64,000 bases of DNA from a virus. The stretch lies in IMG/VR virus record IMGVR_UViG_3300045921_000803, positions 2,893 to 66,892 of that record; one strand, 5' to 3'. Under the pieces are notes generated by a model, which was given only the letters and a program-made list of their open reading frames with translations, did not search any database and was not told the DNA's origin. The position numbers and the translations under genes are program-made. Below, piece by piece: positions 8,778-62,474 of this stretch (its first letter is position 1; each line of letters begins with the position of its first letter).

Positions 8778-9344
8778 CTAGAAATTATAAATAATAACTA
8801 AAACATCTCCGGCATCCAAGATGCCGTCTAAACCTAAACCATTCCAGGTGAGCGCATCGCCCACCACGCTAAAATCAACACCATAGATCTGCACAGGACC
8901 ACCAACAGCAAAAACCTTAACCTTTGTGGGGTCGGAAGGTGTTTCCGACAGGGTCAGCGTTTTTGCCGTAGCTTCACCAGAAGTTATTGTCCTATACTCT
9001 ACCTCTTCGCTGGCTGCAGAGCCTGATTCTACGGCTGTCTCCAAAGCCTCAAGGGCTTCTTTTATCGTAGAATCGTCCGGTATCGTGCTTCCTGGAAACA
9101 TACCCAGATCTACACTTCCGGGGGAAACCCCAGACAGAGTATTAAGACTGTTTATATGTCCTAGGTCAACATCCTCATCAGCAACATTTATGGTTCTTAC
9201 GTCGGTTATCGGTCCAGCGAAGGTGACATGGTCAGGACCGCCTAGGTTTATTTTGAGGTTCTGCACAACAAGGGTGTTCTGCGACAGATTTATATCTGTG
9301 TATATCCCCGAAACAAGCCTAGTTAACCTACTAATATCAGCCAT
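8778..9344 (-). CDS. virion structural protein; C-terminal domain resembles that of 7095..8744
   Basis: C-terminal ...GDVLxIx(F/Y) domain similar in both proteins. Confidence 0.55.
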   Translation of the reverse strand: MADISRLTRLVSGIYTDINLSQNTLVVQNLKINLGGPDHVTFAGPITDVRTINVADEDVDLGHINSLNTLSGVSPGSVDLGMFPGSTIPDDSTIKEALEALETAVESGSAASEEVEYRTITSGEATAKTLTLSETPSDPTKVKVFAVGGPVQIYGVDFSVVGDALTWNGLGLDGILDAGDVLVIIYNF

Positions 9345-9350
9345 AAAAAC

Positions 9351-9575
9351 TTATTTTTTTACCTTCAGATGATTTCTTCTTATAAGATTAGGGTCATTAT
9401 GTTTCAAAATCTCTATGCTTAAAACCGATTCTAGGCCGTATATAGACAGTAAACTGTTTATGTCTAGCGTTGCAGCATCTACGATGTTCCTTATCCTGGC
9501 CCTTAGGGTGCTTTCAACTTCCTGAAACTGCTCTTCTGAAAGGGAATCTAGGTCTATGTACTTATTTTTTTTCAT
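9351..9575 (-). CDS. hypothetical protein
   Basis: ORF translationally coupled within operon. Confidence 0.55.
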   Translation of the reverse strand: MKKNKYIDLDSLSEEQFQEVESTLRARIRNIVDAATLDINSLLSIYGLESVLSIEILKHNDPNLIRRNHLKVKK

Positions 9576-10028: not shown

Positions 10029-12806
10029 CTACACTACGTGCCAGTTTGCGCCATCAGACACCAAAGCAACGCTTTCATATTGAATGGTTACGGCGATAGG
10101 TGTTGTGGTGATGTCCACGCCATCGGCAGTCTGATTTAAGATAGACTCGATGAACATGGTATTTCCTGCGTCAATTTTTTTAATCGTTATAAGTTTTCCT
10201 GAGTTACCTATGGCCGAAGGAAGGGTGACAGTTCTGTTTCCTCCGGAATTTGACAATAAGATATAATCATTAGCGGCGGTTGCTACGTAGTTTGCACCTG
10301 TAACGGTAACTACGTTGTATGTAGGAGCTGAAGGAGTGGCTGAGATGGTTATGTCATTAGTGTTCTGCGTGATGTTTACACCGGCTCCAGCCTGAAGTCT
10401 TCTAAAGTTAAGAGCGGTACCTACCTTGTCCCTGAACACGTTAGCGCCAACACCTACGTTTGCACCTGTATTTATCTCTCCTCCGCCCGCACCAGAACCT
10501 GCTGCTTTACCCGGATCAATCCTGAAGGTTATCTCATCTCCAACTACCAGATCTTGTTGAATCTGTATCGTCACAGACTCGTCGCCAGCGGAGCCAACCT
10601 CTGTCCAGTCGATAGGAATTCTTAGTCTTTGTCCGTTAAGGAAAACTTCTAGGTCGCCTTTTCCTACAACGTAGTTCCTCACCAGATTAAGATCTCTGGA
10701 GTCAAAGGGAAGTGTTAGGTTTGTTCCTGCTAGTACAGGACCAGTAACCTCGTTATCGTCAGCAGGAGGGCCAGCAACTACAGACAAAACCTCTTCGTAG
10801 ATTTTTATATCCTGGCCAGCCAATGCATTAAGATTTGCATCAAGTTTTTTGATAGAAAGCGTCAGATCGTCGCCGTCGGCTATGTAAAAATTTGGAAATC
10901 CATCACCCTGCGATGTTATGGAGATAGAAAGCCCGGTGACGTTCACGTTTGCGGGATCGGTAGAGCTACCTGCTGCGGCAAGAGTAACGGTTACCACATC
11001 GTTCAATACGCTGGCATTGAAATCTAAGAAAGAAGATATTGCAAGTTGGGTAGCGGTAGCAACATCGTTAGCGGTGTCGCCGGTAGATATGCTCACCTCT
11101 ATCGGAATCTTGCCGATAGGAGCAGGATTGCCGCCGGAGCCATCCTTATTATACCAAACATAGTACTCGTTCTGATCTAAGGCAGAATTTATCGTAAAAT
11201 ATTGACCAGAAACTATAGAGGAGGCTGCGGGACAGGTGACATCAAAAACTTCAGTATTGAGAATACCCAATTTAACGGAGTATTCGGGAAAATCATCTAC
11301 CTCACTCGTTGCCCCAATATATGCTATAATCTCTTCTGTTGTGTTGTCAGATATCTCTCTATCTTCGCCCTGTTGAAGCTCTGATCCTAAAAACCTGACA
11401 TACACGCGAGGTGTTGAACCTCCGCTGTCAGATCTCATCAGAAACCAGAACACATCCTCGTTAAAAGGAACATCTTTTCTAGCAGCTATTCTAAGATGTC
11501 GATCGGTAGAAGGAGCGGGATTGGTTTCATAGACACCGAAAGCATATTCTGCTTTGGCCCCAGAAGGACCTGTAGACGTACCTGGATATGCAACAGTAAG
11601 CGTCACCTGTGAGAGGCTGTCTACAGATTGGATCTGCAGATACTGAGTGTCGTCATCAGAAGCTAATTTTATCCAGTCACCGGCCTGAAGAAGACCTGTC
11701 CACGACACGCTTCCTACCGACACTACGGTAGGGTTGCCAGTAGTAAAAACAAGATTTGGTACAACCGCTACGCCTCTTATTAAATTTATATATGCAACCT
11801 GATCATCAGAAAGAGTTATATCCGATGTAGAAGGGTTGGCATTGATTCTGAAACTAAGCCTGCTACCAACAATGGATAGAAATATATCCTGAGACCAATT
11901 AATCTTTCCGGCTACAAATTTGTCGTGTGATATATTTCCGCGACCAGTTACAACGGTATTGCCAAGATCTTGTCTAAGCTTTACTATGGAACCGCCGATA
12001 TTTGGAGAATACCAGTATGTGGTTCCCTTAATCTCCTGAAAAGAGGACATGACCGCATCCATCCATTCCTTCATAGAATAGATCTGCTTGTCGCCGCCCC
12101 GGAAAGGATTCAATGAACTAGATGTGGATGTTACAGGATTTTCAGTTCTTCCTTCTGTGTGATTATTCCAAGGATATAGATATGCAGGATTGGGATTTGT
12201 TCTTCCTGCTGTTCCCAACCGAAACATCATGGGTCTCTGATCTGTTATCTCCACAACGTTTCCTGCGGGGTCTACGGTGACTCTTGCTATTGGAAGTACG
12301 TTGGATGCCCATACCGAAGTTGTGATTACGATATTGTAGCGAAGTATCGAAGCAAGCGGTACGTTTGAGCTGAATTCTGATCTTGAGGTTGGGTTCCAAA
12401 AATAAACGGTGTCTGAAGTGGTGTCGTCTGCAAATCTTTCATACTCTATACCGATATAGTTTACGGCATTGGGAGTAAAGAAACCTCTAACTTTTGGATT
12501 GATGGTTGAGTTTAGAATTTCTGGAGCAGCATTCGAAGGAACTGTGTAAAAAGTACCTGACTGCCTAGATGTGCCGTGAAATATGGTGCCGGAGGAAACC
12601 AAAAGCTGAAGGCCTGCGGCAGCAGAGCCTATAGCCCCCGTCATGTTAAGCTCAAAACCCCTAACTACATACTCTTTGCCAGCACCGGTTACCCACCCTC
12701 TAAGAAGTTCATCAAAGTCGTTTGAAACAGCACTTTCTACAGATCTAAGATGCGGAACATCTATCCTTTGGCTACCTAGCCAACGCTGCCTTCTTCTAAC
12801 ACTCAT
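10029..12806 (-). CDS. baseplate/tail-fibre attachment protein
   Basis: 925 aa; LPIARV...ITDQR motif of fibre N-termini; carries a module shared with the two baseplate proteins. Confidence 0.6.
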   Translation of the reverse strand: MSVRRRQRWLGSQRIDVPHLRSVESAVSNDFDELLRGWVTGAGKEYVVRGFELNMTGAIGSAAAGLQLLVSSGTIFHGTSRQSGTFYTVPSNAAPEILNSTINPKVRGFFTPNAVNYIGIEYERFADDTTSDTVYFWNPTSRSEFSSNVPLASILRYNIVITTSVWASNVLPIARVTVDPAGNVVEITDQRPMMFRLGTAGRTNPNPAYLYPWNNHTEGRTENPVTSTSSSLNPFRGGDKQIYSMKEWMDAVMSSFQEIKGTTYWYSPNIGGSIVKLRQDLGNTVVTGRGNISHDKFVAGKINWSQDIFLSIVGSRLSFRINANPSTSDITLSDDQVAYINLIRGVAVVPNLVFTTGNPTVVSVGSVSWTGLLQAGDWIKLASDDDTQYLQIQSVDSLSQVTLTVAYPGTSTGPSGAKAEYAFGVYETNPAPSTDRHLRIAARKDVPFNEDVFWFLMRSDSGGSTPRVYVRFLGSELQQGEDREISDNTTEEIIAYIGATSEVDDFPEYSVKLGILNTEVFDVTCPAASSIVSGQYFTINSALDQNEYYVWYNKDGSGGNPAPIGKIPIEVSISTGDTANDVATATQLAISSFLDFNASVLNDVVTVTLAAAGSSTDPANVNVTGLSISITSQGDGFPNFYIADGDDLTLSIKKLDANLNALAGQDIKIYEEVLSVVAGPPADDNEVTGPVLAGTNLTLPFDSRDLNLVRNYVVGKGDLEVFLNGQRLRIPIDWTEVGSAGDESVTIQIQQDLVVGDEITFRIDPGKAAGSGAGGGEINTGANVGVGANVFRDKVGTALNFRRLQAGAGVNITQNTNDITISATPSAPTYNVVTVTGANYVATAANDYILLSNSGGNRTVTLPSAIGNSGKLITIKKIDAGNTMFIESILNQTADGVDITTTPIAVTIQYESVALVSDGANWHVV

Positions 12807-12867: not shown

Positions 12868-12880
12868 CTATAAGATTGTC
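12868..12880 (-). promoter_or_regulatory. AATCTT motif, candidate late promoter
   Basis: gacAATCTTatag on - strand ~65 bp upstream of 12806; motif recurs before other structural units. Confidence 0.6.
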
Positions 12881-16594: not shown

Positions 16595-19500
16595 CTAACT
16601 TCCAATCTGCCTTACTGAAATATCAGATACAGGATCAATAACCCTAGATTTTTCAGAAGGAGCTATGGAGATGGTGTCATTGCTAGGATTGTAAAGAGGA
16701 GAGCTGATAGCTACGGCCCTTACGCCAGGTATAGTATTTACTGCTTCTACGATATCACTTATAGCTATAGCCTGACCAATCGGGTTACCATCTATGAGAG
16801 AGGCCACATTTGTCCTGACCTGTTCTGTTATCTGGGCAAAAGGAATACCTGTCTCAATCCTTACGTCGATACCTACGCTGACTCTCTTGAATAAGGGCTC
16901 TCTGATAAAAATTTCAGCACCAGCAGCTCCAACACCGGGATATGTAATTGGATCTCTAGGATCTCCATAAACAACACGGTTAGCTTCCCCGATAAGACCG
17001 GTATGATATCTATAGCTATCCAATCCCCTAACAAGTCTTGTGTCAAAAGAAAGCTTGTTAGTAGTTTCCATGACAACACTTCCTATCGTATTGATCTTAT
17101 TAAATTGCTCTTTAGTATCAAACACCACTATGCCGGTTTGAGGGCTGGAAGGATCATTAACTACAAAGCGAATCTTTTTATATCCTACGTAAGGAAATTC
17201 CTCTTCTACAAAAAGAGATTCTTCAAATCCTGCTATAGACGTAAATTCCTGGCTAAGCATCGTACCAGAAACTATTATGGTGTTTTCGTCCAAAACCTCT
17301 TCCACTAACCACATATTCTGATTTGTTTGAGACAAGAAGTCACTTGAGATAGCAAATATATCTCCGGGAACCGTAGCATCGTATTCGTAAAATTTAATCT
17401 GAGGCCTATGAGCTTCGAAAGCATTGGATATTGTTACTCCAGTTTCCGAAACAACCGCAGGGTTAAGAACCTGTACGGATGTTCTGCGGCCATTCTGAAC
17501 TATCTCTATATCAAAGTTAACGTTCATATTGCCTTCGGTAGCATTTGTAGTTTCGGCAAATCCTGTTGTATTGATGGTCACTATATTCCCGACCGCATCC
17601 GCATCAAAATCAGAAAGCGCGTCTAAGGCAGCAGCCGTTGCGTTCGCTACCTGAATATTTGTATCCAGACTATTTATGGCTACAGATATGCCGGTTTTTC
17701 CTAAGATTAAAGGATCTCCACCGCCTCCATCCACGTCATACCAAACATAATATTCGGTAGCATCACCTGCTGAATTTATCTCCCAGTAGTCTCCTGTTGT
17801 TATCAGGTTTCCGGATACGCACGTTGCTCTTGTAATTTCCTGCAATTTTTCTTTGGAGGTTAATACCGTAAATCTTCCTTGGTTTGCGATGTTGAAATCC
17901 GTTCCTAGGGTCAATTCATCTCCAGGTCTAAGAACAGAGAAATCTGGCTCGGTGCCTACACCATCCCAGATGATTGTCATTTTGTTATTGGTAGACAATA
18001 CATCCAGAGATGTTGTGCCATCTACTCCAGTAGGAATAGGATTTGATGGTAGTGTTACATCCTCGTTTGTAGATATTGGATTATCTATATATATAGAGTT
18101 TTCGTATCTTCTAATTACTCTATGCTTACCTCTGTTTAGTACGTTGAAGGGAGCAGACAACACGACATTGTCTCCCTCAGAAACGGAAGATAAGCAAGAA
18201 AAGGAGGTTGTTGTGTATCCTCTACCTACAAGGAAAGGGTCGGAAACAGATCCTCCACCGCCTCCTCCAAGGTCGTTATAAACAACGGAGATATTTGCAG
18301 CAGGAGATAGGGCTTCTACGGTAACCACAGGACCTAAAGATGTAGCGGAAACTCCTGGTAGGGCACCTACGGCAGAAGCAAGGTTTTCCGCCGTATCAGA
18401 AGCGGTAGCACCAACAGCAAAATCAACACCGGCAATCAAGGAGTTTCCACCTATGATGAACTGATCTCCCGTGATGTTGGTGTTGTCCAAAATATTCAAG
18501 GTTGCGGTAGAGAATTCGCTTATACCGTTTTGATTAAGAACCCTGATGATTTTCCCATTATCAGAAACGCCCGTAACCAGGAACGTTCCGTCATTTTCGG
18601 GATTATCCATTCCAGATATCGACAAAGAATCTCCGATAGATACGTTGGTAAAATTTACAGGTCCTGTCAGTATGTATACGTTCATCTCCGCAGTATTTGG
18701 AATCCTTTCGATGTTAAGCGTACCAGATGCTGTACTGTTAAGATTTAACAGGGTTGAGAAGAATGGTTGGGTTCCAACGCCGTTCCAGCTAATGCAGGTG
18801 AGGTTTCCCTGTTTTTCCACCCTAAAGTTTCTTCCCTGAGATCTGATATGATTTCTTGGTTTTCCAAAATGTCTATCGGTGATCGTTTTACCTGTTAGCT
18901 CGACACGAGATTTTTGGAATACAGGAAAATCCCCATCGATCTTAATAGATGCCGTATTTTTAAATAGAGTCTCTTTTGCTTGTTTAAAAGAGGCAGAGAG
19001 TTTTACGGTCTGGTCGCTATGAAAACTATTTAGGGAAGATCTGTTAAAGGTAGAAAGAGTGTACAGATTATCTATAAGAATAGACGGACTAACAACAAGG
19101 GCAGAAGAAAAATTGGCTCCTCCTCCTACAACCTGGAGAGATCCTGATTGTCCCAGTATCCTGGTAGAAAGCTCCATCCTGCCTTCTCTTGAGGTCAGAA
19201 AAATGTTTCCTATGGTGGAGAAACCGCTTACGGCCAGGACATTAGAAAATCTTACAGCCTGCTCTATAGATGTAGGTACTATCCTAAGCTCTTCCCCGTC
19301 GTTAAAAGAATATCCGGTATCCGTGACGTAGGATAGAGGCCTTTTGAACGTGAACTGTGGAGAGCCGGAGATATTGGATGTTGAGATCCAGTTTACTCCA
19401 TCTAGAAGATAATACGAATCAAAAGAAAAATCATTAGCTTCTGCCGTAGACCTGTCGATCACACCGGCCCCAGAAGTACCGGAATCATCAACAAGCTCTG

Positions 19501-22500
19501 CGGTAACTATGTCGGAAAGCGTTGATGAAGACACATATGTCTCTATCTCCGCAGCAGTAGTTGCTAGGGGTTGAAAGAAAGAAAAGACATTGGCAACAAG
19601 AGTTGCTCTGTCTAATTCCGCAATCGCTTCGCCATTTTTCCTAACTACGGTAAAGCTAGATGCTGTAGGGGCAAAACCGACCTCGGTGCTGACTCTGAAA
19701 GTTCCCGTATTTTTACGATCAAGCTCAGACCCTTGAGATATGGTAACATATTCTCCGCCTGCCAATGTTCCAAGACCTGGGGCGGTTCCTGTTCCAGTCC
19801 AGGTGTAGGTGACCTGGTCAACACCGGCAACAGGAAAATTGGCTGTTATTGTCACATCCCATTCTGTAGTTCCATCTATGGTAGTTAATACTGGGGCACC
19901 TGATTTCAAGGAGATTCTTACATTTATATCTTCACCTACAGACACGGTGTGTAGTATGGGACTGTTGGGAGATGTAGGATAAGAATACCCCACATTGATT
20001 CTTTGTCCAGACCTTCCCCATCTGACTGCTCTGTAAAGGATAGCATCCTCATTGGCAGCTTCATCTACCACTCTTTTTGCTTTCATCAACACCTTAAAGT
20101 TGTCAAAAGCGAAGGAAGGGTCAAAAAATTGAGTGAAAGGCGTTGTGGGTCCAGCGTCTAGATCATAGGCATTAAAAGTGTTTGGATTTGCAGCAAGACT
20201 TGTGTTGGTGATAGCTTTCCTGTAAAAAGGTATGTCAAAAGTCTTGTTGGCAGCATCTCCGTCTACGATAACAACCATCTCATCTTCGTGCCCAAAGTCC
20301 AGAGAATTTGCAAAATAATACCTGTCTCCGGTTCTAAGCCTTTTAACAAGAGGGTCCTGGTTAAGGGTAAGGACAGATCCCGAATAGTTATTAAGTTCTG
20401 TAGTCTCAGACGGACTTAGCGCATCTGCGACCGAACCATACGGTTGTAGATACCCGACTATCTTGTCTGGGTCCATACCTATGGTAGACGGGTTGAGTGC
20501 GCTAGATACCGTCGAAACAAAAGAATCAGGAGGTGATGCAAACGTTCCTGATGCGAATGAGGAGTGTGCGAATATTGGCAACGCACCTTCTTTGTATCCG
20601 CTTTCATAGTATGCAACCAAGGAATCCTTGCTGTCGTCGGTATCTCCTTCCACAAACCCTAGGGGCTTAGAAGGATTGTCAAAAGTAACTACAAAAATAG
20701 AGCCATCTGAGTTTCTAGTTTTGGTGCTGGCGATAAGGATTTCGTCATCTATGGTTGAAAACCGTATTGATTTTGATTGTAGATTTAACTCGTCGGCAAT
20801 CTGACTGAGCTGTTTGGTACCAGAACCAATTTTAAACTTTTGAGGAACCTTACTTGTCCTGACGACCGCAAAACCTTCCTGAAAAAGAATTCCGGATTCA
20901 ACTACCGCCGTAGCAAATTCAGAAGCTGTGACCCTGATGTCTAAAGTAGATGGGCTAGAGGAAGCAACCCTGCCTTCGATTCTGTTGGCAGCAGAAAGCT
21001 CTTCAGACCAGACAATTACATAGTCTCCTTGCTGTACAGCAGAGAATGCTGTGGGAGCAGAAGAGGTAAACCTGATGGTATTGGATACGGGTTTAGATAC
21101 AGCTATTAACGTGGAAGCAACTACGCCAGTATTTACGATGCGGGCATCCTTATCATCAGCCAACAGCCAGATGTAGGCATCGCTAGGTAAAAATATAGAA
21201 CCACCAAGAATCCTAGCGGACTGAATTCTAGCTTCTGTTTCCCTGCTTCCGGCTGTAAGCTCATCTCCAGGAGCAAGAGGCTCTCTAAGTTTTATCTGCG
21301 CTGTGTTTCTTGAGAAAATAAAATCAGAACTCTTACCAAGAGAAACCAGCCCTTGATTGAGGGAGAACATATTCTTAGAGACGAGGGTAGAAGAAAAATC
21401 TATGGAAAGACGCGCTCTGTTAGAGGCGCCTAGATTGGATGTAAGAAAAATCTGCTCACCAACTACGCTTGCGGTAATGCCTGTAACCTTTTTGTTTATA
21501 ATCCTTACCCAGCTTTCTAAAGAATTGGTGGAGGATACTGTTGGATGAGATCCGTCTGCTACAAAATCAGAATCTAAAAACGTATAGGTGATATTTGCAG
21601 TATTGTCGACAGAGATTATCAAGGTGTCGCCAGAAACTATTGTGTTGGACCAGTTTGCCTGTCTTTCTGATTTGATCGTTGCTGTAGCGCCATCCTTGGA
21701 TAAAGGCTTTTTATTCTTAAACAATCTGATTGTCTGGACTTCATTAAAAGGTAGTCCTATAAATTCGGCAGCATTTCTGCCCAGAGTAACATCCACAGCC
21801 TGGACCTGTTCGTTTTGTTCGGATCTTGCCTGTATGGAAACTTTCGTTCCATTCTCTGCGGTTGCAGCCTCAAAATTAAGAGCACTATTCGCATTTATAG
21901 ACGCAACAATCTCAAAAGCAGTAGCGCCTCCAGGGCTTATAAAATCAGAATTTTTAAAAGTGTGCTCGGTAGTGACGCCGCCAACAGAGATGGCTAGCCT
22001 ATCCTGTCCTCTAACATCAAACGGAGCACTGAGGCTGGATACGATGAAGGCCTTAGCAACGCTGGTTTGTCTTCCGCCTGTTTCAAGCTGAAAATCGGTT
22101 TCTCCACCCAAGGCGCTATCTACCAGGAACTCGATACCCACACCGCGTGTTTTCTGCTCATACCCGCTATTGTCATCGATAAAAAGAGTAGTTTGTCCAG
22201 CGCTGGTAACTATCTCTGAAGACTCAACAGAAGCATTTTCGTCGCTAGGCGTAACGCCTACAACAGAATTTTTTACTGCCAATGCTGTACCTAATCCTCT
22301 TGAAAGACGAGCCCTTTTGATGCGGATGCGTAGCTGCTCATCAGTCTCGACATCGCGACCCGTTCTGAAAGGAGAGGTGTTAGTTACAGCAGCACCGGGA
22401 AACGGAGGAGCCCCAAATTCCTTGATGGCTCCGATTGGGATATTTCCTGTAGCTCCAGGTTCCTGTGCGGAAACCTGTACTCCAGAAATGGAGGTTTCTC

Positions 22501-23149
22501 CGTCCAAAATTATCGCTGATTGAGTAACGGTAAAATTAATATCCGGGCTGGCGCCGGTAGCAGGAGCCCGTACAACGGTCCCTGAGGTTATGTTTCTGGT
22601 TCCACCCTGAGCCAGGATAACCGACTCGTTGGTGTTATGAAACTTAGTCGTAGGTACTGCAAGCGTAATTTGCCAGAAGCTACCCAACTGTGTTTTGGAT
22701 AGGTATGGAATAGGGCCTTCTACGTTTGGCGTCTGTCTACCTATATAGATAGAGCCCGTAGCAGGAAAATCGGAGGCGTCTGATACAAGAATTGTTGTAG
22801 AACCTACGTTTGGCGCCCTGGCTCCGGTGTATATCTTTGTTGAAATTTTTTCAAAACTGGTATCGCTAACCGTGACTGTTCCCGTAGCTACCCTGGCTGG
22901 CAAATCACGCAAACCCTCATCTTTTGCAAGACGGCGCAAGGACTCACCTTCCGCCCTGTCTACGCTTAGATCTCTTAGGATCTGAAACGCATCGCCAGAG
23001 GTCCTGGCAACCATCAAAGAGACAACCTCAAAAAGTTGGGTAGATAGAGATCCAACGTTAAGATCGTCAACCCCGGTCCTACTAAGCCAGTCGGAAAGCA
23101 TTTCCCCTAAAATCTGCTCTTGTGATTTAGGATTGGGTGTTTGAGACAT
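16595..23149 (-). CDS. giant baseplate J-like (gpJ/gp6) protein
   Basis: N-terminal J motifs (AQEPGATGNIPIGAI, GRDVETDEQLRIRI); C-terminal IGQAIAISDIVEAVNTIPGV; large internal insertion. Confidence 0.8.
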   Translation of the reverse strand: MSQTPNPKSQEQILGEMLSDWLSRTGVDDLNVGSLSTQLFEVVSLMVARTSGDAFQILRDLSVDRAEGESLRRLAKDEGLRDLPARVATGTVTVSDTSFEKISTKIYTGARAPNVGSTTILVSDASDFPATGSIYIGRQTPNVEGPIPYLSKTQLGSFWQITLAVPTTKFHNTNESVILAQGGTRNITSGTVVRAPATGASPDINFTVTQSAIILDGETSISGVQVSAQEPGATGNIPIGAIKEFGAPPFPGAAVTNTSPFRTGRDVETDEQLRIRIKRARLSRGLGTALAVKNSVVGVTPSDENASVESSEIVTSAGQTTLFIDDNSGYEQKTRGVGIEFLVDSALGGETDFQLETGGRQTSVAKAFIVSSLSAPFDVRGQDRLAISVGGVTTEHTFKNSDFISPGGATAFEIVASINANSALNFEAATAENGTKVSIQARSEQNEQVQAVDVTLGRNAAEFIGLPFNEVQTIRLFKNKKPLSKDGATATIKSERQANWSNTIVSGDTLIISVDNTANITYTFLDSDFVADGSHPTVSSTNSLESWVRIINKKVTGITASVVGEQIFLTSNLGASNRARLSIDFSSTLVSKNMFSLNQGLVSLGKSSDFIFSRNTAQIKLREPLAPGDELTAGSRETEARIQSARILGGSIFLPSDAYIWLLADDKDARIVNTGVVASTLIAVSKPVSNTIRFTSSAPTAFSAVQQGDYVIVWSEELSAANRIEGRVASSSPSTLDIRVTASEFATAVVESGILFQEGFAVVRTSKVPQKFKIGSGTKQLSQIADELNLQSKSIRFSTIDDEILIASTKTRNSDGSIFVVTFDNPSKPLGFVEGDTDDSKDSLVAYYESGYKEGALPIFAHSSFASGTFASPPDSFVSTVSSALNPSTIGMDPDKIVGYLQPYGSVADALSPSETTELNNYSGSVLTLNQDPLVKRLRTGDRYYFANSLDFGHEDEMVVIVDGDAANKTFDIPFYRKAITNTSLAANPNTFNAYDLDAGPTTPFTQFFDPSFAFDNFKVLMKAKRVVDEAANEDAILYRAVRWGRSGQRINVGYSYPTSPNSPILHTVSVGEDINVRISLKSGAPVLTTIDGTTEWDVTITANFPVAGVDQVTYTWTGTGTAPGLGTLAGGEYVTISQGSELDRKNTGTFRVSTEVGFAPTASSFTVVRKNGEAIAELDRATLVANVFSFFQPLATTAAEIETYVSSSTLSDIVTAELVDDSGTSGAGVIDRSTAEANDFSFDSYYLLDGVNWISTSNISGSPQFTFKRPLSYVTDTGYSFNDGEELRIVPTSIEQAVRFSNVLAVSGFSTIGNIFLTSREGRMELSTRILGQSGSLQVVGGGANFSSALVVSPSILIDNLYTLSTFNRSSLNSFHSDQTVKLSASFKQAKETLFKNTASIKIDGDFPVFQKSRVELTGKTITDRHFGKPRNHIRSQGRNFRVEKQGNLTCISWNGVGTQPFFSTLLNLNSTASGTLNIERIPNTAEMNVYILTGPVNFTNVSIGDSLSISGMDNPENDGTFLVTGVSDNGKIIRVLNQNGISEFSTATLNILDNTNITGDQFIIGGNSLIAGVDFAVGATASDTAENLASAVGALPGVSATSLGPVVTVEALSPAANISVVYNDLGGGGGGSVSDPFLVGRGYTTTSFSCLSSVSEGDNVVLSAPFNVLNRGKHRVIRRYENSIYIDNPISTNEDVTLPSNPIPTGVDGTTSLDVLSTNNKMTIIWDGVGTEPDFSVLRPGDELTLGTDFNIANQGRFTVLTSKEKLQEITRATCVSGNLITTGDYWEINSAGDATEYYVWYDVDGGGGDPLILGKTGISVAINSLDTNIQVANATAAALDALSDFDADAVGNIVTINTTGFAETTNATEGNMNVNFDIEIVQNGRRTSVQVLNPAVVSETGVTISNAFEAHRPQIKFYEYDATVPGDIFAISSDFLSQTNQNMWLVEEVLDENTIIVSGTMLSQEFTSIAGFEESLFVEEEFPYVGYKKIRFVVNDPSSPQTGIVVFDTKEQFNKINTIGSVVMETTNKLSFDTRLVRGLDSYRYHTGLIGEANRVVYGDPRDPITYPGVGAAGAEIFIREPLFKRVSVGIDVRIETGIPFAQITEQVRTNVASLIDGNPIGQAIAISDIVEAVNTIPGVRAVAISSPLYNPSNDTISIAPSEKSRVIDPVSDISVRQIGS

Positions 23150-23229: not shown

Positions 23230-23242
23230 ATATAAGATTAGT
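23230..23242 (-). promoter_or_regulatory. AATCTT motif, candidate late promoter
   Basis: actAATCTTatat in the intergenic gap upstream of 23149. Confidence 0.6.
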
Positions 23243-23258
23243 CTGTTGTTATATATTA

Positions 23259-31583: not shown

Positions 31584-33976
31584 TACTTATTGCCTCCAAA
31601 CCTAGGCTGCTCTGAGTCAGCAGGAGGAGCAGCCTTTTCTGGAGTTCCTACAAAAGAACTGTTGAGTGTGCTGATCGCCGTGCTAAGCATGCCCTTATCA
31701 ACATCTTCTCCTTTATATGCCCTGGCTATTATGGAGGCGGATTCTCGTATGGCAGTATTGAATTCTGAAAGACCACTAATTACTATACCCACCTCTTTTT
31801 GGAAAGACCCAACAACAGATACTGCGGAGATGTCCTCCTCCGCTTTCTGAGCTTTTAGTTTTTCCCCTGCTGTATCCGGAACACCTCCGGTAGCCATGCT
31901 CATCAGATCTTTTGCTTCCTGTTCCGATCTTTTCTCGTCAGGAGATAGTTCTAAGCCAGCTATGCCTTTTACGAGCGCTTTTCTCTGCTCAGCAGACATC
32001 TTCGCTACAGCATCACCCTGAGGTCCAGAATACATACCTGCTATTATGTCGGAGGAAAGTCTGTTGTATTCATCGCTGTTCGGATCTAGACCTTTTATCT
32101 GCTCCACCTTACTAGCGATGTCACCCCTTGTAACCATAGCAGGCTTCTTGATTTTTTCTATCAGCTCTTCTGGGCTGGAGATTCCTGCCTTTTTCATGAT
32201 GTTCATCATGAAAGGATCTCCTGACTTAGCGTTTGAAAGAATCTGCTCCTCGGTCATTCCCAGAAGTAGATTCTTCTCGTCGATACTTAAAAGTCTTAGC
32301 TTAGGGTCTCTATTTATTGCCGCAGCCTGGAGTGCTCCTCTGATTCCTCCAGAAGCCCCAGAAAGCTGATTCATAAAATTAGACGCGACAGCCGCACCCC
32401 TCATCTGAGACATACTACCGCCTGTCATAAAACCAGAGAAGCGTCCCATCAGCGCCTGCTGCGACCCCACGCTTGTTGCGTCGTTTCGCTGGAACATATC
32501 AAGCATATTTTCTGTGAATACGTTCCTTTCCTGCCTATCCATACCACTGAACTGTGAACCCATGTTCTGTATATTAAGTAGAGCTTGAGCGCTATCTCCG
32601 CCGCCTCCCAATAAAGATGAAAGCCTTCCGTAGGCTCTGGCAGCGTTTGACAAACCTAAATTTCTTTCCAATCTTTGGGAGGTCAAGATTCCGCCGATAT
32701 CTGTCATGGCACCGGTAGACCCTCCAGCAGAGGCTATGGCTCCCATGGCCCTTCTTGTATCGTCAAACTGGAATCCAGATCTGGCGTTTATTAGAAGCAT
32801 CCTCTCCATCTCTCTGTCGCTCATGCCGGTAGCTCTCTGAAGTGGAAGATTCTTCATCGTATCTTCTTGAAATCTCTGAAATGCAAAATTCTTTAAGCCT
32901 GAAGCCCGCTTTAAGGATTCGTAGTTTTCTTCTACTGCAGCTACCCTTCTTGCTTCCATCTGGGCATCATATTTACCGGTTAGCCGGTCAAGACCCTGAT
33001 CGTATATTTCCGATGCTCCCCACACACCCGCACCGATGATGCCTGTCTTTGCAAGCAGACCTGCGCTTGCCAGAGCTGCGGGCGCTAATCCTAGGGTCAG
33101 TGCCCCGGCGGCTATGACTCCTATAGTCGCAGCCCCAAGCTTGATAAGATCGTTACGCCTGGTTGTCCGTATCTCTTCAGCCGCCATCTTTATCGCCCTA
33201 CTTCTTTCCCCTGAGAAGGCAAGAGCATCTAAGGAGCCTCCGGTAAGAGACTGCAGGACAGGGGACGCTGCGCTTTGCATAGCACTGCCCTGTGCCGAAA
33301 GTATATTTCTAGGAGCTTCCGCAAATCTTTGTGATATGTCTGCGACGGTTCCCATACCTGCAGCCAAGAGAGATCCGACGCCGCCAGCAAGTGCTAGTGG
33401 GTTGGCCGCAGCAAAAGCTCCTAATCCTCTACCGACGGCTGTTCCAGCAGCCCCCATCTGACCTAAAAGACCAGCTCCTCCTTGACGAGCACCCATAGCT
33501 GCCATACCAGCCCTCTGGGCGATTCCAAAGAAACCTCCTTCTCCATTAAATCCAGGTGTTCTGATCCTGTTGGAGGCATCTATAGCAAGTTCTCGTGAGG
33601 CCTTTAGCTTTTCCTGGCTTGTAAGTATCTGCTTGTCAATTTCCAGGGTGTCTTTTCCTAGCTTCAACAGCTCTTTTTTCTTCAGAATTTGCTTGTCCAG
33701 CTCCTTGTTTATAAGATCCTGCTGTTTTTGCTGGTCCCTTATAAAGGAAAGTAGCTGCTGTCTTTCCCTCATCTCACCCTGATAGTTTCTAGTCTTCTCG
33801 GCCTCGGTTACAGGCCCTCCGATCCCTACACGACTGCTTGCTATTCGGGACTCGAACTGTGTCCTAGACTGGTCGGATGTTTGATAAATTTTCTGCAGCT
33901 TCTGCTGCATGCCTTCCATCGCCCTGTCGAATTCTTTGGTATCGATTGCTGCAGAAAAACGAATCTCTTTTTTCAT
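31583..33976 (-). CDS. tape measure protein
   Basis: 797 aa, Ala/Gly/Met-rich helical with hydrophobic segments, upstream of hub. Confidence 0.75.
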   Translation of the reverse strand: MKKEIRFSAAIDTKEFDRAMEGMQQKLQKIYQTSDQSRTQFESRIASSRVGIGGPVTEAEKTRNYQGEMRERQQLLSFIRDQQKQQDLINKELDKQILKKKELLKLGKDTLEIDKQILTSQEKLKASRELAIDASNRIRTPGFNGEGGFFGIAQRAGMAAMGARQGGAGLLGQMGAAGTAVGRGLGAFAAANPLALAGGVGSLLAAGMGTVADISQRFAEAPRNILSAQGSAMQSAASPVLQSLTGGSLDALAFSGERSRAIKMAAEEIRTTRRNDLIKLGAATIGVIAAGALTLGLAPAALASAGLLAKTGIIGAGVWGASEIYDQGLDRLTGKYDAQMEARRVAAVEENYESLKRASGLKNFAFQRFQEDTMKNLPLQRATGMSDREMERMLLINARSGFQFDDTRRAMGAIASAGGSTGAMTDIGGILTSQRLERNLGLSNAARAYGRLSSLLGGGGDSAQALLNIQNMGSQFSGMDRQERNVFTENMLDMFQRNDATSVGSQQALMGRFSGFMTGGSMSQMRGAAVASNFMNQLSGASGGIRGALQAAAINRDPKLRLLSIDEKNLLLGMTEEQILSNAKSGDPFMMNIMKKAGISSPEELIEKIKKPAMVTRGDIASKVEQIKGLDPNSDEYNRLSSDIIAGMYSGPQGDAVAKMSAEQRKALVKGIAGLELSPDEKRSEQEAKDLMSMATGGVPDTAGEKLKAQKAEEDISAVSVVGSFQKEVGIVISGLSEFNTAIRESASIIARAYKGEDVDKGMLSTAISTLNSSFVGTPEKAAPPADSEQPRFGGNK

Positions 33977-34050: not shown

Positions 34051-34063
34051 ATGAAAGATTGTC
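34051..34063 (-). promoter_or_regulatory. AATCTT motif, candidate late promoter for tail operon
   Basis: gacAATCTTtcat upstream of the tape measure gene. Confidence 0.6.
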
Positions 34064-40753: not shown

Positions 40754-40965
40754 CAAGAAAACAGGCCAACATGGAAATCCTGAGGATGATGGCCAACTAT
40801 ATCAATTCTAATCCGGACCTGCGTTTTGGACAGGCTTTAAGAGCGCTGGACATCACAAGATATGAGGAAGTTCTCAGCGGAAAGATCCCAAAATCAACCC
40901 CGTTCTACGAGGAGTCGACAGAAACCCTTAATAGGGTTATAAAGGCTTTGAAAGACAATCTTTAG
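40750..40965 (+). CDS. hypothetical protein
   Basis: PDLRFGQ...FYEES motif seen in small phage proteins. Confidence 0.65.
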   Translation: MTRKQANMEILRMMANYINSNPDLRFGQALRALDITRYEEVLSGKIPKSTPFYEESTETLNRVIKALKDNL

Positions 40966-40992: not shown

Positions 40993-41595
40993 ATGAAAAA
41001 CGCTAATATCCCTTTCTGGCTTTATCTGTGGGCTCCCATAAGCTGGTTCCTTGTCGCCATCGTCGCAAGATCAATTTTTATAGCGATGGGTTTTGTCACA
41101 GTCCCCATAGCCGTACTGTTTGGGGCATGGGAGACAAGGGAATCGAAGATGTATCCGGGAAGACAGGTGAGGGCGTTTAGCTGGCCCATCATGTGGCTAT
41201 GGGGCAACGAGGAAGAAGGTATAGGTCACTATGGCAATCCGGAGTGGCCGCTTTGGCGTCGAATTATTTTTTCAGAGTGTAGGCAGAATCCTGCGAACAA
41301 TTTTAGATATGTTACACTATTTTCAGTAAAGCTTGACCCATCCAGGATAAAATTCTGGGCAACCCCTGAAAAGCCGACAATAGAAGCATACGACTCTGAC
41401 GACGACGATTTCTTCTACATGGCGTGGCAGGGAGGATATTCCTGCCTAAGATGGCAGAGGAAGTTTGGTTGTTTTGGTAGGCGCAGACTATGGATAGGAT
41501 GGAAAATTTATCCCGAAGATGTAAACGGAATACCTGACTGGGATCATAGAAAGGTGAGAGCAGGTGTCGCTACCCAGTTTAGGAGGTTGCGATGA
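40993..41595 (+). CDS. membrane-anchored Trp-rich protein
   Basis: N-terminal TM(s); GGAG RBS. Confidence 0.65.
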   Translation: MKNANIPFWLYLWAPISWFLVAIVARSIFIAMGFVTVPIAVLFGAWETRESKMYPGRQVRAFSWPIMWLWGNEEEGIGHYGNPEWPLWRRIIFSECRQNPANNFRYVTLFSVKLDPSRIKFWATPEKPTIEAYDSDDDDFFYMAWQGGYSCLRWQRKFGCFGRRRLWIGWKIYPEDVNGIPDWDHRKVRAGVATQFRRLR

Positions 41596-46914: not shown

Positions 46915-47114
46915 AAACACTAAACTATGGCGGATTCGGAGTAGTTGAGATGGGCCTGCAGGAGTTCCTTTCCCGCATGGAAGATAAAGACATACTTGAG
47001 GTGGTTAAAGTTGAAGGCTACGTGTTCCTACACAGCCCAAAAGACAACCAGCTCTACGCAGTTGGGGAGCCTCATAGTAAAAAGACTGCAGAGGATTATA
47101 AAGATGTCGAGTAG
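46911..47114 (+). CDS. hypothetical protein
   Basis: ATG overlapping upstream stop. Confidence 0.55.
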   Translation: MKTLNYGGFGVVEMGLQEFLSRMEDKDILEVVKVEGYVFLHSPKDNQLYAVGEPHSKKTAEDYKDVE

Positions 47115-47559
47115 GTTTACAGATGACGGGATCTTAAAACCGTCAGAATTTAAAAAAGAATTGGATCTATTATTGCTCAACGTCCCTTTTAACCCAGAGG
47201 GAATACTAACGAATAGAGAGTCGATGATAGTTAATGAGTGGGTTATGGGTAACTCGATTGTAGGTATTGCAGACCGGCTAGGGGTCACAAGAGAAAGGAT
47301 TAGGCAGATCCTGTCAAAAGTTCAAAGAAAGATGGGTGTAGACGTAGTACCTGCGAACACCTGGGACCCAAACGATATCTCAAGTATTGAAGAATGGGTT
47401 GAGTATGAGGGGCTTACCGATCTGCGCAGCGACATTGAAAAGGCAATGGCCGAATCCGGAATTCCATCGGATGCAGGTAAGGATGTTGTAAATTTTATAT
47501 TCTCTAGATTTAGAGAGTTTCTGGTATCGCGAGACATGGAAAGAGATGTGGAGGACTAG
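47104..47559 (+). CDS. sigma70 region-4-like HTH protein
   Basis: LTNRE...IADRLGVTRERIRQI; start moved to ATG 47104 after GAGG. Confidence 0.7.
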   Translation: MSSRFTDDGILKPSEFKKELDLLLLNVPFNPEGILTNRESMIVNEWVMGNSIVGIADRLGVTRERIRQILSKVQRKMGVDVVPANTWDPNDISSIEEWVEYEGLTDLRSDIEKAMAESGIPSDAGKDVVNFIFSRFREFLVSRDMERDVED

Positions 47560-60125: not shown

Positions 60126-60433
60126 AATATTTGATTTTAAAAGTACTGCTTATTGCTGGCCTACTTCTCAGCTTATATGTTAGCTTTATGGTTTACGAAA
60201 ACAGAAATAAGTTTTTGGTGGGCGACTGTGTTGAGGTGGTTTATGAAACCGAATTCTATCGAAACGTTTATTATCACATGATCACAAGGGTTGGCAAAAA
60301 GGCTTATCTAACAAGCATAAAAAAGGCTGGTTCCAACCGTTTTTTTAAAACGGATAATTTTGAATGGAAGTTTGAGCTTAATAGGTATAATAAGGCTGAC
60401 GGCAGTAACTGTGAGACGGCCCCTAGTCCATGA
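60122..60433 (+). CDS. membrane-anchored hypothetical protein
   Basis: N-terminal TM; AGGAGG RBS. Confidence 0.6.
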   Translation: MKYLILKVLLIAGLLLSLYVSFMVYENRNKFLVGDCVEVVYETEFYRNVYYHMITRVGKKAYLTSIKKAGSNRFFKTDNFEWKFELNRYNKADGSNCETAPSP

Positions 60434-60795
60434 CAACACCTATAGTCCTGGGGCTACTATACTCAACCCACCTCGCAACACCGGAGCTGGATCGTTTCCA
60501 TCCTGTGGTTGAGTATGGAAACGTGATGTACTACAGGAATAGCTTTGGAAGGGATTCTCTGGCACTGTATAAAAAATACAGTGCAGAAAATCTAAGTTTA
60601 AGGCTTGGGATTACTACAGGATATGAAAGGGAGATAAGACTGGGAAAGGATGTCTACATCACCCCAGGCACCATCGATAAAAACCTTACGTTATTGGTGG
60701 TTCCCAGCTATGATCTGAATATCAAAGACAATGTAGGGATGACCTTCTCGCTGATGGGGAGTGCTCTGGTTACCGGACTCACGGTATCGTTTTAG
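60430..60795 (+). CDS. small outer-membrane beta-barrel candidate (PagP-like pattern)
   Basis: STH...YRNSFGRDS...LGITTGY; alternating beta-strands; terminal Phe. Confidence 0.5.
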   Translation: MTTPIVLGLLYSTHLATPELDRFHPVVEYGNVMYYRNSFGRDSLALYKKYSAENLSLRLGITTGYEREIRLGKDVYITPGTIDKNLTLLVVPSYDLNIKDNVGMTFSLMGSALVTGLTVSF

Positions 60796-60803
60796 AAGGT
60801 ATC

Positions 60804-60858
60804 AAAAAAAACGCACAAATGCCTCGACCCATGCGAAAGCTTTTTTCGGGGCCAAGGC
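60804..60858 (-). terminator. intrinsic terminator-like stem
   Basis: GCCTTGGCCC...GGGTCGAGGC stem, then ATTTGTGCG and T8. Confidence 0.55.
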
Positions 60859-61035
60859 TTCTAGCCGTGGAAAATAAACGCGGCATATCAGATATGGTGA
60901 GCTATTAACATGAAAGCAGCGGGTTAGCCCTGGTTGACCTGCAACCACCCGAAGCTTCCACCCTCATTCGTAGCCATGCTACCAGAAGGCGCCGCGAACC
61001 CTGGCATCGTTACGAGGCTTGTTCAGAACGGCTTA
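60804..61035 (-). ncRNA. candidate structured ncRNA behind an AATCTT motif, ending in a terminator
   Basis: no ORF; nested stems AGCCGT/ACGGCT, CGCGGCG/TGCCGCG, TGGAAGC/GCTTTCA; hairpins; GC stem plus U8. Confidence 0.55.
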
Positions 61036-61036
61036 G

Positions 61037-61049
61037 AATAAAGATTGGG
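61037..61049 (-). promoter_or_regulatory. AATCTT motif, candidate late promoter
   Basis: cccAATCTTtatt directly upstream of the structured non-coding region. Confidence 0.5.
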
Positions 61050-61118
61050 TCTACATGGGCTAGGTGCCAGGACAGAGGCTTACGATCGATCCTGGGGCTT
61101 TTAAAATGGTGGTGGCTT

Positions 61119-61190
61119 CTACAGGTCTTCGCCTGGGTCTTCAACCCTTGTATCGTCTTCGTAGGTGCGAACTACAGGCTTGTCAGGTGG
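61119..61190 (-). pseudogene. displaced alternative C-terminus of 61483..61977
   Basis: translates PPDKPVVRTYEDDTRVEDPGEDL* versus gene end PPKEVVRTFVDDTPDDESGDW*. Confidence 0.7.
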
Positions 61191-61409
61191 TGAGAGGCCA
61201 GGCGCTACTCTGGCTATGTGCTTACTGAGGTTCAACTTAAGCACAGCTAGAACAATCTAGCTTGATAAGCGATTACCCTCTTATTCAGCACCGAGTATTG
61301 TCTTCTCTCTGCGTGTCTCCAGTGGCTTATCGTAAGGTTTGCCCGAAGAATTTATGCCTTACGCTCAAAAGTGCTGTAACACTCCCACAGCTTTCCACGC
61401 CGCTCTCAC
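61188..61409 (-). ncRNA. expanded tRNA-like RNA (~220 nt)
   Basis: acceptor stem GTGAGAG/CTCTCAC with terminal CCA; CG linker; D-stem GCGT/ACGC; T-like stem GCCAG/CTGGC; extra hairpins inserted. Confidence 0.7.
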
Positions 61410-61482
61410 ATATAAACTCTATCACATTATTATTTATAAACGAATAGGTAAAATTTACATGGTATAACTTGTAAGACGTATC

Positions 61483-61977
61483 TTACCAATCACCTGACTC
61501 ATCATCAGGTGTGTCATCTACGAATGTTCGAACCACTTCTTTAGGTGGTGGGTTATTTGTAGGAGCTTGTCCCTTATCTGCGGAGCTAGTGTTGGGAGCT
61601 AGTTTTGGGGTATCCTGAACAGCAAAGCCCTTAGCCTTATCCCTCTCAGCCTTAGCTAGGCGTTTATTCTCTTCCTCTTCCTCAAGCATCTCTATGAACT
61701 CCTGGATGGATTCCTCCTCCTTCTCGTCATAGTCTGGATCTACAGCCTTAAGCATATCCGTTAGCAGGATGTCCTCACCTTCATCAGACTCTGCAATTTT
61801 TTCATACCCTTCCTCGAAGTAGGCTAGAAAAACCTGATCCATGGGCATGTCGTAAACCTCTCTCAGAGGTGTGTGAAAGGTTTTGGAAAACCACCTGCAG
61901 ACATATCGGTAGTAGTATTCGTAGCTGGGATCGGACACGTTAGCAAGGGCTATCTCCTTGAGGATCTTCAGGTCCAT
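61483..61977 (-). CDS. putative tail assembly chaperone (T-like)
   Basis: RWFSKTFHTPLREVYDMP...YFE pattern plus acidic tail; paired with upstream ORF. Confidence 0.5.
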   Translation of the reverse strand: MDLKILKEIALANVSDPSYEYYYRYVCRWFSKTFHTPLREVYDMPMDQVFLAYFEEGYEKIAESDEGEDILLTDMLKAVDPDYDEKEEESIQEFIEMLEEEEENKRLAKAERDKAKGFAVQDTPKLAPNTSSADKGQAPTNNPPPKEVVRTFVDDTPDDESGDW

Positions 61978-61979
61978 CC

Positions 61980-62474
61980 CTAATCCTTCTTATCCTTGGA
62001 CCTGGAGGTTTCCGCTTCCTGAGCCTCTTTTTCCTGCTGCTCCCTCATCTCGATGGCTTTTGCAAGCTTCTCCACCGAAAGCTTGTGCTTTTCCTGAAGC
62101 ATCTTCCTATACTTGGTCTCAGCAACAACCGAAGCCTCAAAAACCTTCTCGATGATCTCCTTGTCCCTAACCTGGGAACCTGGAAACTTCGATATTCCGT
62201 CAAACCAGAAGGGAGGGCCAGATATAACCCTCTGTTTTAGCTGGGTTAGAGCGTAGGCAAGGTTTTCGATATGGGAGCTGATAAGCTCAGTATTCTTACC
62301 CAGAAGCTCGCGGTAGTCACGATCAGCCTCTATCTCCTGCATAGGCGTTATGCCTGTCCTAAGCTTGAAAACACCCTGGTAGGTGCCGTTGATGGGGGCT
62401 GTGGTGTTCATCTCCCAGGTGGCCACCCCTTGGGCATCTATAGAAATATCGTTCTCGTCTACAGTATCGATCAT
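61980..62474 (-). CDS. putative tail assembly chaperone (G-like)
   Basis: YQGVFKLR...LKQRVISGPPFW pattern; start moved to ATG after GGAGG. Confidence 0.5.
   Translation of the reverse strand: MIDTVDENDISIDAQGVATWEMNTTAPINGTYQGVFKLRTGITPMQEIEADRDYRELLGKNTELISSHIENLAYALTQLKQRVISGPPFWFDGISKFPGSQVRDKEIIEKVFEASVVAETKYRKMLQEKHKLSVEKLAKAIEMREQQEKEAQEAETSRSKDKKD

Follow-up and report, generated by a model that had tools for sequence, protein, structure and literature searches.

The window analysed here is a stretch of 64,000 nucleotides, bases 2893-66892 of a 66.9-kb IMG/VR record, which is a contig of an uncultured myovirus with an estimated completeness of 42%. DNA near-identical to positions 60300-62100 was found in only 4 DNA runs from 3 studies (hot-spring/microbial-mat, possibly the source itself). 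The gene blocks of the window and the features of the gap between the last two of them are as follows.

1-34 kb, minus strand: virion block (baseplate, tail-fibre and other genes)
34-60.8 kb, plus strand: small early-type genes, including ClpP, a 2OG oxygenase, a sigma-like ORF and a nucleotidyltransferase
60804-60866, both strands: bidirectional terminator region between convergent blocks (minus strand, hairpin then U8; plus strand, A8, the same hairpin and AAAGC-U6)
60804-61049, minus strand: orphan G+C-rich non-coding segment with a plausible nested fold (fold prediction), flagged by the first-pass annotation
61041-61051, minus strand: promoter-like motif GACCCAATCTT, in its extended form AATCTTTA (motif scan)
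61050-61189, minus strand: ORF-free spacer of 140 nt, G+C 0.529, with local hairpins; a variant contig from this community lacks it
61190-61409, minus strand: conserved RNA element of 220 nt
61416-61426, minus strand: promoter-like extended -10 element TGTGA-TAGAGT, ending 6 nt before the conserved RNA
From 61.5 kb, minus strand: further gene block

The window is tightly packed, and the gap at 60796-61482 (687 nt) is its largest ORF-free stretch. The gap is flanked by convergent genes, one on the plus strand at 60430-60795 and one on the minus strand at 61483-61977. The first of these, the last gene before the terminator, encodes 121 aa that match a PagP-like lipid A acylation family in the C-terminal part of that family (phrog_3600, E 2e-10). 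In the virion block, a 2184-aa protein (16595-23149, minus strand) shows baseplate-wedge similarity near its N-terminus (phrog_6; best stretch residues 185-297) and is very large for a baseplate protein.

The last 246 nt of the gap, read on the minus strand (60804-61049), had been described in the first-pass annotation as a late-expressed structured RNA of about 230 nt lying in an ORF-free, GC-richer region. No ORF longer than 48 aa is present. The G+C content of the segment is 0.508, which is among the highest 4.4% for windows of 246 nt, the mean of the whole window being 0.437, but the region concerned spans the whole 687 nt and not 246. For positions 60836-61409 the G+C content is 0.507, which is in the top 1.2% of windows. 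The small ORFs of the region were compared with PHROG and gave no family match. On the minus strand the segment ends, as described, in a terminator-like stem of 9 pairs (60835-60812) followed by U8 at 60811-60804, so that the G+C-containing stem and the U-run of an intrinsic terminator are both found at 60835-60804. A longer hairpin (60866-60826) is present in the folds of both strands, and the same hairpin, with its A8/U6 flanks, can also end the plus-strand operon.

Six helices had been named in the segment, and all six exist in the sequence. The long-range helices AGCCGU/ACGGCU, CGCGGCG/UGCCGCG and UGGAAGC/GCUUUCA, together with the hairpin GUAGC/GCUAC, are all in the minimum free energy fold of 60804-61049 (minus strand), with pair probabilities of 0.9-1.0 whether the RNA starts at 61049 or at 61036. 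The two remaining hairpins, UGGUUG/CAACCA (probability 0.18) and GGG-CUAA-CCC (0.00), are not favoured. Folding energy was proposed as a check on the candidate and gave a value not above chance: -83.1 kcal/mol compared with a shuffle mean of -75.9 (sd 4.9), z -1.47, where 15 of 200 shuffles were as good. Folding from 61036 gave z -1.25 and the plus strand of the segment z -0.92. The energy score has no power at this locus, because the RNA next door (61190-61409), which is proven by covariation as described below, itself scores just z -1.28. Folding in a long sequence context was considered as evidence against the flagged helices and was rejected; it also erases the proven helices P0, P1 and P2 of the neighbouring RNA.

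Relatives of the phage were collected using a 632-aa virion protein, which gave eight related records; three of the eight are complete, with about 164 kb each. Proteins next to the gap were used in the same way: the 164-aa protein found no relative in IMG/VR or the JGI metagenomes, the 121-aa protein none, and the 172-aa protein one weak match. The nucleotidyltransferase led to 3 records, carrying neither the conserved RNA nor the gap. When the gap was compared with the relatives by blastn, matches were found only in 61403-61195 (E 1e-13 in G005), with collinear short matches to this same stretch in G004, at two places, and in G008. Inspection of the matching places revealed three blocks in common and, by eye, compensatory changes in helices. 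The gap had no blastn match in cultured phages. The conserved element of the gap is thus the 220 nt at 61190-61409, which lies 140 nt upstream of the flagged segment and had been missed by the first-pass annotation.

For the flagged segment itself, homologs were likewise to be collected and used for covariation. None was found in the 8, 28 and 4 related phage records searched, the best match being 19 nt at the terminator, and positions 60796-61195 as a whole had no homolog in these 40 records. A hairpin pattern taken from the segment gave 0 matches in IMG/VR and, in genomes, 1 chance coding match in a MAG. In its own community the segment is covered by its own contig only, with no differences. 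The proposed Rfam search (Rfam 15, 4227 models) returned 0 matches at the gathering score in the whole window, and at E up to 10 positions 60600-61700 gave three chance-level matches.

The conserved RNA of the window has the following parts, all on the minus strand.

61409-61403 with 61196-61190, minus strand: closing stem P0, GUGAGAG/CUCUCAC
61400-61396 with 61315-61311, minus strand: helix P1
Between P1 and P2, minus strand: internal loop GAAAG/AGA
61390-61385 with 61325-61319, minus strand: helix P2, with a variable arm
61214-61197, minus strand: 3' hairpin GCCAG-AGUAGCGC-CUGGC, with no gap to the closing stem

A gapped pattern was built from the 5' and middle blocks of this RNA only, and a scan of IMG/VR with it gave 33 loci. 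The 3' hairpin and the closing stem were not part of the search pattern, and both were found in 32 of the 34 sequences (the window and the 33 loci), in the same register in 29 of the 32. Two loci, L029 and L050, were chance coding matches lacking the architecture and were rejected. The common architecture is a closing stem of 5-9 bp, a 2-nt linker, P1 (5 bp), the GAAAG/AGA loop, P2, variable arms, and a 3' hairpin of 5 bp with an 8-nt loop N-R-U-N-G-C-G-N, which abuts the 3' strand of the closing stem. Part of the invariance seen in the 5' and middle blocks is a consequence of the search pattern. At 61190-61409 we find the fixed-register closing stem, the 2-nt linker and the abutting U-N-GCG hairpin by which family members are recognised.

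An alignment of 28 distinct copies (A1) was used for evaluation of the structure. L029 and L050 were left out for want of the architecture, L043 had an irregular closing stem, L030 was a near-duplicate of L031, and L036, L038 and L040 were identical to L034 or L033. In A1, 97.1% of 627 cells were paired compared with 77.0% in shuffled alignments, a value reached by 0 of 500 shuffles, where the fraction for the outermost closing-stem pairs is inflated in that these pairs, like the row ends, were set by our own script. There were 129 cells with a double change compared with 32.7 in shuffles, and compensatory change was found in 17 of the 24 pairs. As controls, the positions were slid within A1, and this gave 29-42% paired. 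RNAalifold, run with no given structure, returned the same four helices with 23 pairs, 15 of them with compensatory change; P2 consists here of C-G, U-G (U-A in 5 copies), a bulged U and GUGG/CCAC, with the loop GAAAG opposite AGA. A mutual information analysis gave no tertiary covariation for the hairpin loop. Because G.U and A.C cells are equally numerous (12 and 12, five of the A.C cells being at one doubtful pair), the strand of the family RNA is assigned from the promoter and U-run context.

A covariance model (R1) was made of the 5' module only, covering 85 positions. It scores 63.4 bits on 61310-61409 of the window, a copy that belongs to the training set. R1 gave 18 matches in 11 of 16 records, and all 9 records at least 90% complete carry 1-3 copies. 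The model also led to 12 further copies, several with variant motifs and all with the hairpin and closing stem, although three of them needed relaxed loops (by eye). Altogether the family comprises about 40 copies, 1-3 per genome, on carrier records of 36 to 165 kb. The element at 61190-61409 is a member of a widespread phage-borne family of structured RNAs. In a run of R1 on the entire window with filters off (E up to 10), 60804-61049 gave no match and 61310-61409 was the only one; as judged by this model, the flagged segment is not a diverged copy of the family RNA and the gap holds no second copy. Pairing between the two was also considered, with UUUUCCACG (60873) as an antisense partner of the family's CGUGGAAAG, and was rejected: across 100 kb of family loci the anti-motif was found 4 times, 1.5 being expected, and its position was not consistent.

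Additionally, the pattern was run on 185,579 species genomes, where it gave 11 loci, 3 of them real by R1 (>50 bits) and located on two MAG contigs. The 5' module had no blastn match (E up to 10) in 50,697 deposited phage genomes, and R1 had none in Mx1, a Myxococcus phage and the sole cultured one whose recombinase is related. No match was obtained in a metagenome scan with 23 nt of the RNA of the window. Word depth in the source community climbs about tenfold over 61375-61401, reaching 105-195 from a level of 7-12. Community contigs of 2.9, 16.7 and 18 kb match 61310-61410 only and then diverge; the 5' module is therefore common to co-occurring phages. Community contigs break or branch at 61368-61410, where the conserved 5' module behaves in assembly as an inter-phage repeat. 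A variant contig of 368 nt keeps both ends of the RNA and has 150 nt inside replaced by 106 others; directly after the RNA 3' end it carries ACUUUUUU, a U-run, in place of the spacer.

In 18 of the 28 copies a hexamer resembling a -10 element is found 3-12 nt before the closing stem, compared with 6-14 of 28 at shifted positions, which is a modest enrichment. A U-run of at least 4 within 14 nt after the closing stem is found in half of them (14/28). The copy of the window is followed by CACCUGAC and has no U-run after the closing stem. Among individual copies, each tandem copy of G004 (L013 1270-1900, minus strand) is preceded by an extended -10 of the TGTGATATAAT type, and the copy near the contig start of L024 (100-145) is preceded by a perfect TTGACA-17-TATAAT.

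The gene next to the RNA encodes a UvsX-like recombinase (phrog_97) in 5 loci, an Erf-like protein in 1 and a Cas4-like exonuclease in 1. Four phages (L011 375-2569, L033, L034 and L026) have the same order of UvsX-like recombinase, RNA and a protein of about 300 aa, the latter being 41-44% identical between them. This protein had no match in Pfam, NCBIfam, PHROG or PDB, and its AlphaFold model is poor (pLDDT 59). It is unrelated both to the Mx1 primase and to the sigma-like ORF of the window; an Atlas lead is Sigma70_r2, which was seen in one neighbouring cluster at 15%. A gene begins 15-60 nt after the RNA in about 11 of 27 copies. An obligate cis-acting leader or riboswitch was rejected, as at least 4 of 28 copies (window, L023, L024 and L039) have a convergent gene or no gene downstream, and copies in tandem are common.

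Judged by its sequence features, the family matches no model of Rfam 15 and is not a tRNA, tmRNA or Y RNA. Rfam 15 run on 17 family loci at E up to 1 gave nothing at the RNA. ARAGORN found 0 tRNA or tmRNA genes in the window and called the RNA in 0 of 37 family loci. The family resembles tRNAs and tRNA-like domains in having an end stem of about 7 bp, a 2-nt linker and an abutting 5-bp hairpin, comparable to acceptor and T arms; unlike in tRNA, the loop is 8 nt with U-N-GCG in place of the T-loop UUCRA, and there is no CCA/discriminator pattern. In L026 (about 1540-1575) and L039 the sequence GGGTTCGA(G/T)TCC, which resembles a tRNA T-arm, occurs in the variable arm within P2. Genes for tRNA flank 2 of 37 family loci. 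On the Deltaproteobacteria MAG contig L083 (1169-2109) the RNA has tRNA-Met on one side and tRNA-Asn on the other, all on one strand, as if it belonged to a tRNA cluster.

YrlA-type Y RNAs are characterised, in the sections of PMC4201824 that deal with their structure, by canonical T and D arms and, close to the 5' end, a GNCGAAN0-1G motif. Set against that description, the family has the 5' end CG-GCGUG-GAAAG (by eye), with neither GNCGAAN0-1G nor a T-loop. Furthermore, Ro60/TROVE (PF05731) was absent from 5 of 5 near-complete carrier genomes, with Deinococcus radiodurans positive as a control, and a YrlA Y RNA was rejected. The stable RNAs C and D of T4 (rnaC and rnaD; species 1 and 2) are given in an excerpt of PMC3014915 as phage-encoded, structured RNAs of 120-140 nt, with an undefined role. 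They lie in a tRNA cluster, and the two family loci beside tRNA genes are alike in this. In T4 rnaC (L076 2909-3047, minus strand) GAGUAGCG occurs twice, once as UUGA-GUAGCG-UCAA, whose hexaloop is by eye the same as that of the family 3' hairpin; rnaC ends in a canonical tRNA T-arm, whereas the family has none, and the two have no common 5' module. Identity with rnaC or rnaD was rejected, R1 having no credible match in the T4 genome as a whole or in its tRNA region, where the best E was 0.87.

Packaging RNA of the phi29 type is alike in being a phage-encoded structured RNA, here of about 170-230 nt. Rfam includes a pRNA model. The differences are the lack of any Rfam match (E up to 10), neighbouring genes other than packaging genes, and a phage that is a large myovirus and unlike phi29. 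A structural or packaging role had been suggested for the flagged segment; nothing points to it.

A published survey reports 8,495 structured-RNA candidates from intergenic regions of IMG/VR with covariation evidence (PMC10690425, main findings). The family comes from the same data source and has the same kind of evidence as the candidates outlined there, and may already be among the unnamed ones. Two 12-nt family motifs, in RNA and DNA spellings, were not found in 6 of its supplementary files, which form part of the supplement. Full-text literature searched for the family motif strings gave unrelated primers only, among the matches listed, and the literature on tRNA-like phage RNAs searched held nothing matching the family.

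The flagged segment had been assigned a promoter on the basis of an AATCTT motif. AATCTT alone is at chance level in the window (70 sites compared with 65.1 expected), whereas the longer form GAC-N0-3-AATCTT is enriched, with 7 sites compared with 2.5 +/- 1.5 in shuffles, and is found upstream of genes. Five of the 7 sites are 31-85 nt upstream of a same-strand gene start, one is the flagged site and one is intragenic. The five upstream sites, of the form GAC-N0-3-AATCTT(T/A), are listed here.

9384-9395, minus strand: site before the gene start at 9344
12872-12880, minus strand: site before the gene start at 12806
23234-23243, minus strand: site before the gene start at 23149
34055-34063, minus strand: site before the gene start at 33976
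40954-40962, plus strand: site before the gene start at 40993

Four of the genes behind these sites belong to the virion block and one is a plus-strand gene. In the closest relatives (G001-G003) the motif is again found upstream of genes, and so it is in L012 at about 1865-1873. GAC-N0-3-AATCTT is probably a phage-specific promoter. The earlier proposal that the flagged segment and virion genes have a promoter type in common is plausible with the longer motif, which lies upstream of baseplate and tail genes and is promoter-like by sequence; the 'late' expression of the segment would follow from this shared motif only. A 204-aa ORF (46945-47559, plus strand) has Sigma70 region 4 and LuxR-type HTH matches. 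This ORF may encode a sigma-like factor of the phage itself, one that could recognise GAC-N0-3-AATCTT.

We read the gap as a two-part non-coding RNA locus, consisting of the family RNA and a lineage-specific non-coding tail (the flagged 246 nt) that ends in the terminator, and give this reading a probability of about 55%. The family RNA would be made as a discrete small RNA, as suggested by the -10-like element upstream and by the U-run after the closing stem in half of the copies. It would probably act in trans as a protein-binding scaffold, often in replication-recombination modules. Because the window copy has no U-run after its closing stem, we propose that transcripts here probably run past the RNA to the strong terminator at 60835-60804, which may also serve the convergent plus-strand operon. 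The internal promoter-like GACCCAATCTT may additionally start a transcript of about 230 nt, for which the predicted fold is possible. Also counting for a tail are the terminator itself, the U-run of the variant contig in place of the spacer, the 60796-61195 stretch for which the 40 records hold no homolog, and the single R1 match in the gap. Three observations count against it. GAC-N0-3-AATCTT at 61041-61051, as found upstream of virion genes, favours an independent transcript; the G+C content of the tail (0.51-0.53, top 1-4%) is unusual for a spacer and fits selection on RNA structure; and four of the flagged helices have a probability of at least 0.9 in isolation.

A wider interpretation, which we put forward tentatively, takes both parts as RNAs in tandem. 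The family would then be a new class of phage RNA with a tRNA-shaped closure, its own invariant internal loop and the U-N-GCG hairpin, expressed early, from host-type promoters, often in 2-3 copies per genome and in replication-recombination modules (UvsX-, Erf- and Cas4-like), serving in trans as the RNA subunit, or a decoy, of some protein from the phage or its host. The flagged segment would be a second, phage-specific RNA made from the promoter type of the virion genes.

That 61035-60804 is by itself an independent structured RNA of about 230 nt, with a phage-specific (probably late) promoter, a U8 terminator and a regulatory or structural role, we consider rather doubtful. The promoter-like motif as at virion genes, the terminator, the raised G+C and the absence of an ORF with a family match all agree with it, and helices H1, H2, H3 and H6 reach a probability of at least 0.9 with the start at the motif. 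It is weakened by z -1.47 with 15 of 200 shuffles as good, although this measure fails to discriminate even for the proven neighbour, and by the two of six helices that are not favoured. With no Rfam match and no homolog in any search there is no covariation support either, and nothing speaks for a packaging role.

It is improbable that the flagged segment is an inert relic of DNA that was inserted or has decayed, with termination as its sole function. Its orphan status in all searches and the variant contig lacking the adjoining spacer would be expected of such a remnant, but it lies in the largest gap of a tightly packed genome, has raised G+C and is not AT-rich, and carries a promoter-like motif. 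Least probable is a small protein encoded by a 27-codon ORF with ATG at 61007: its start 33 nt after the promoter-like motif falls inside the 31-85 nt spacing of real genes, and several genes of the same phage likewise have no clear Shine-Dalgarno sequence, but besides lacking one the ORF is G+C-rich unlike the phage genes, is buried in predicted helices and would be followed by about 130 nt of untranslated RNA, and PHROG gave no match for the longer of the small ORFs in the gap.

On the reading of a family RNA with a lineage-specific tail, the cues used in the first-pass annotation (ORF-free, G+C-rich, terminator) did locate a true non-coding RNA locus, but the RNA was placed in the wrong third of it. 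What is novel belongs to the RNA family at 61190-61409, outside the flagged coordinates, possibly already present without a name in a published candidate list. To our knowledge, functional structured RNAs of phages are few. Conservation of this one across unrelated phages, with near-invariant loops and abundant compensatory change, implies a general function, and its recombinase-adjacent position together with the invariant internal loop suggests a protein partner.
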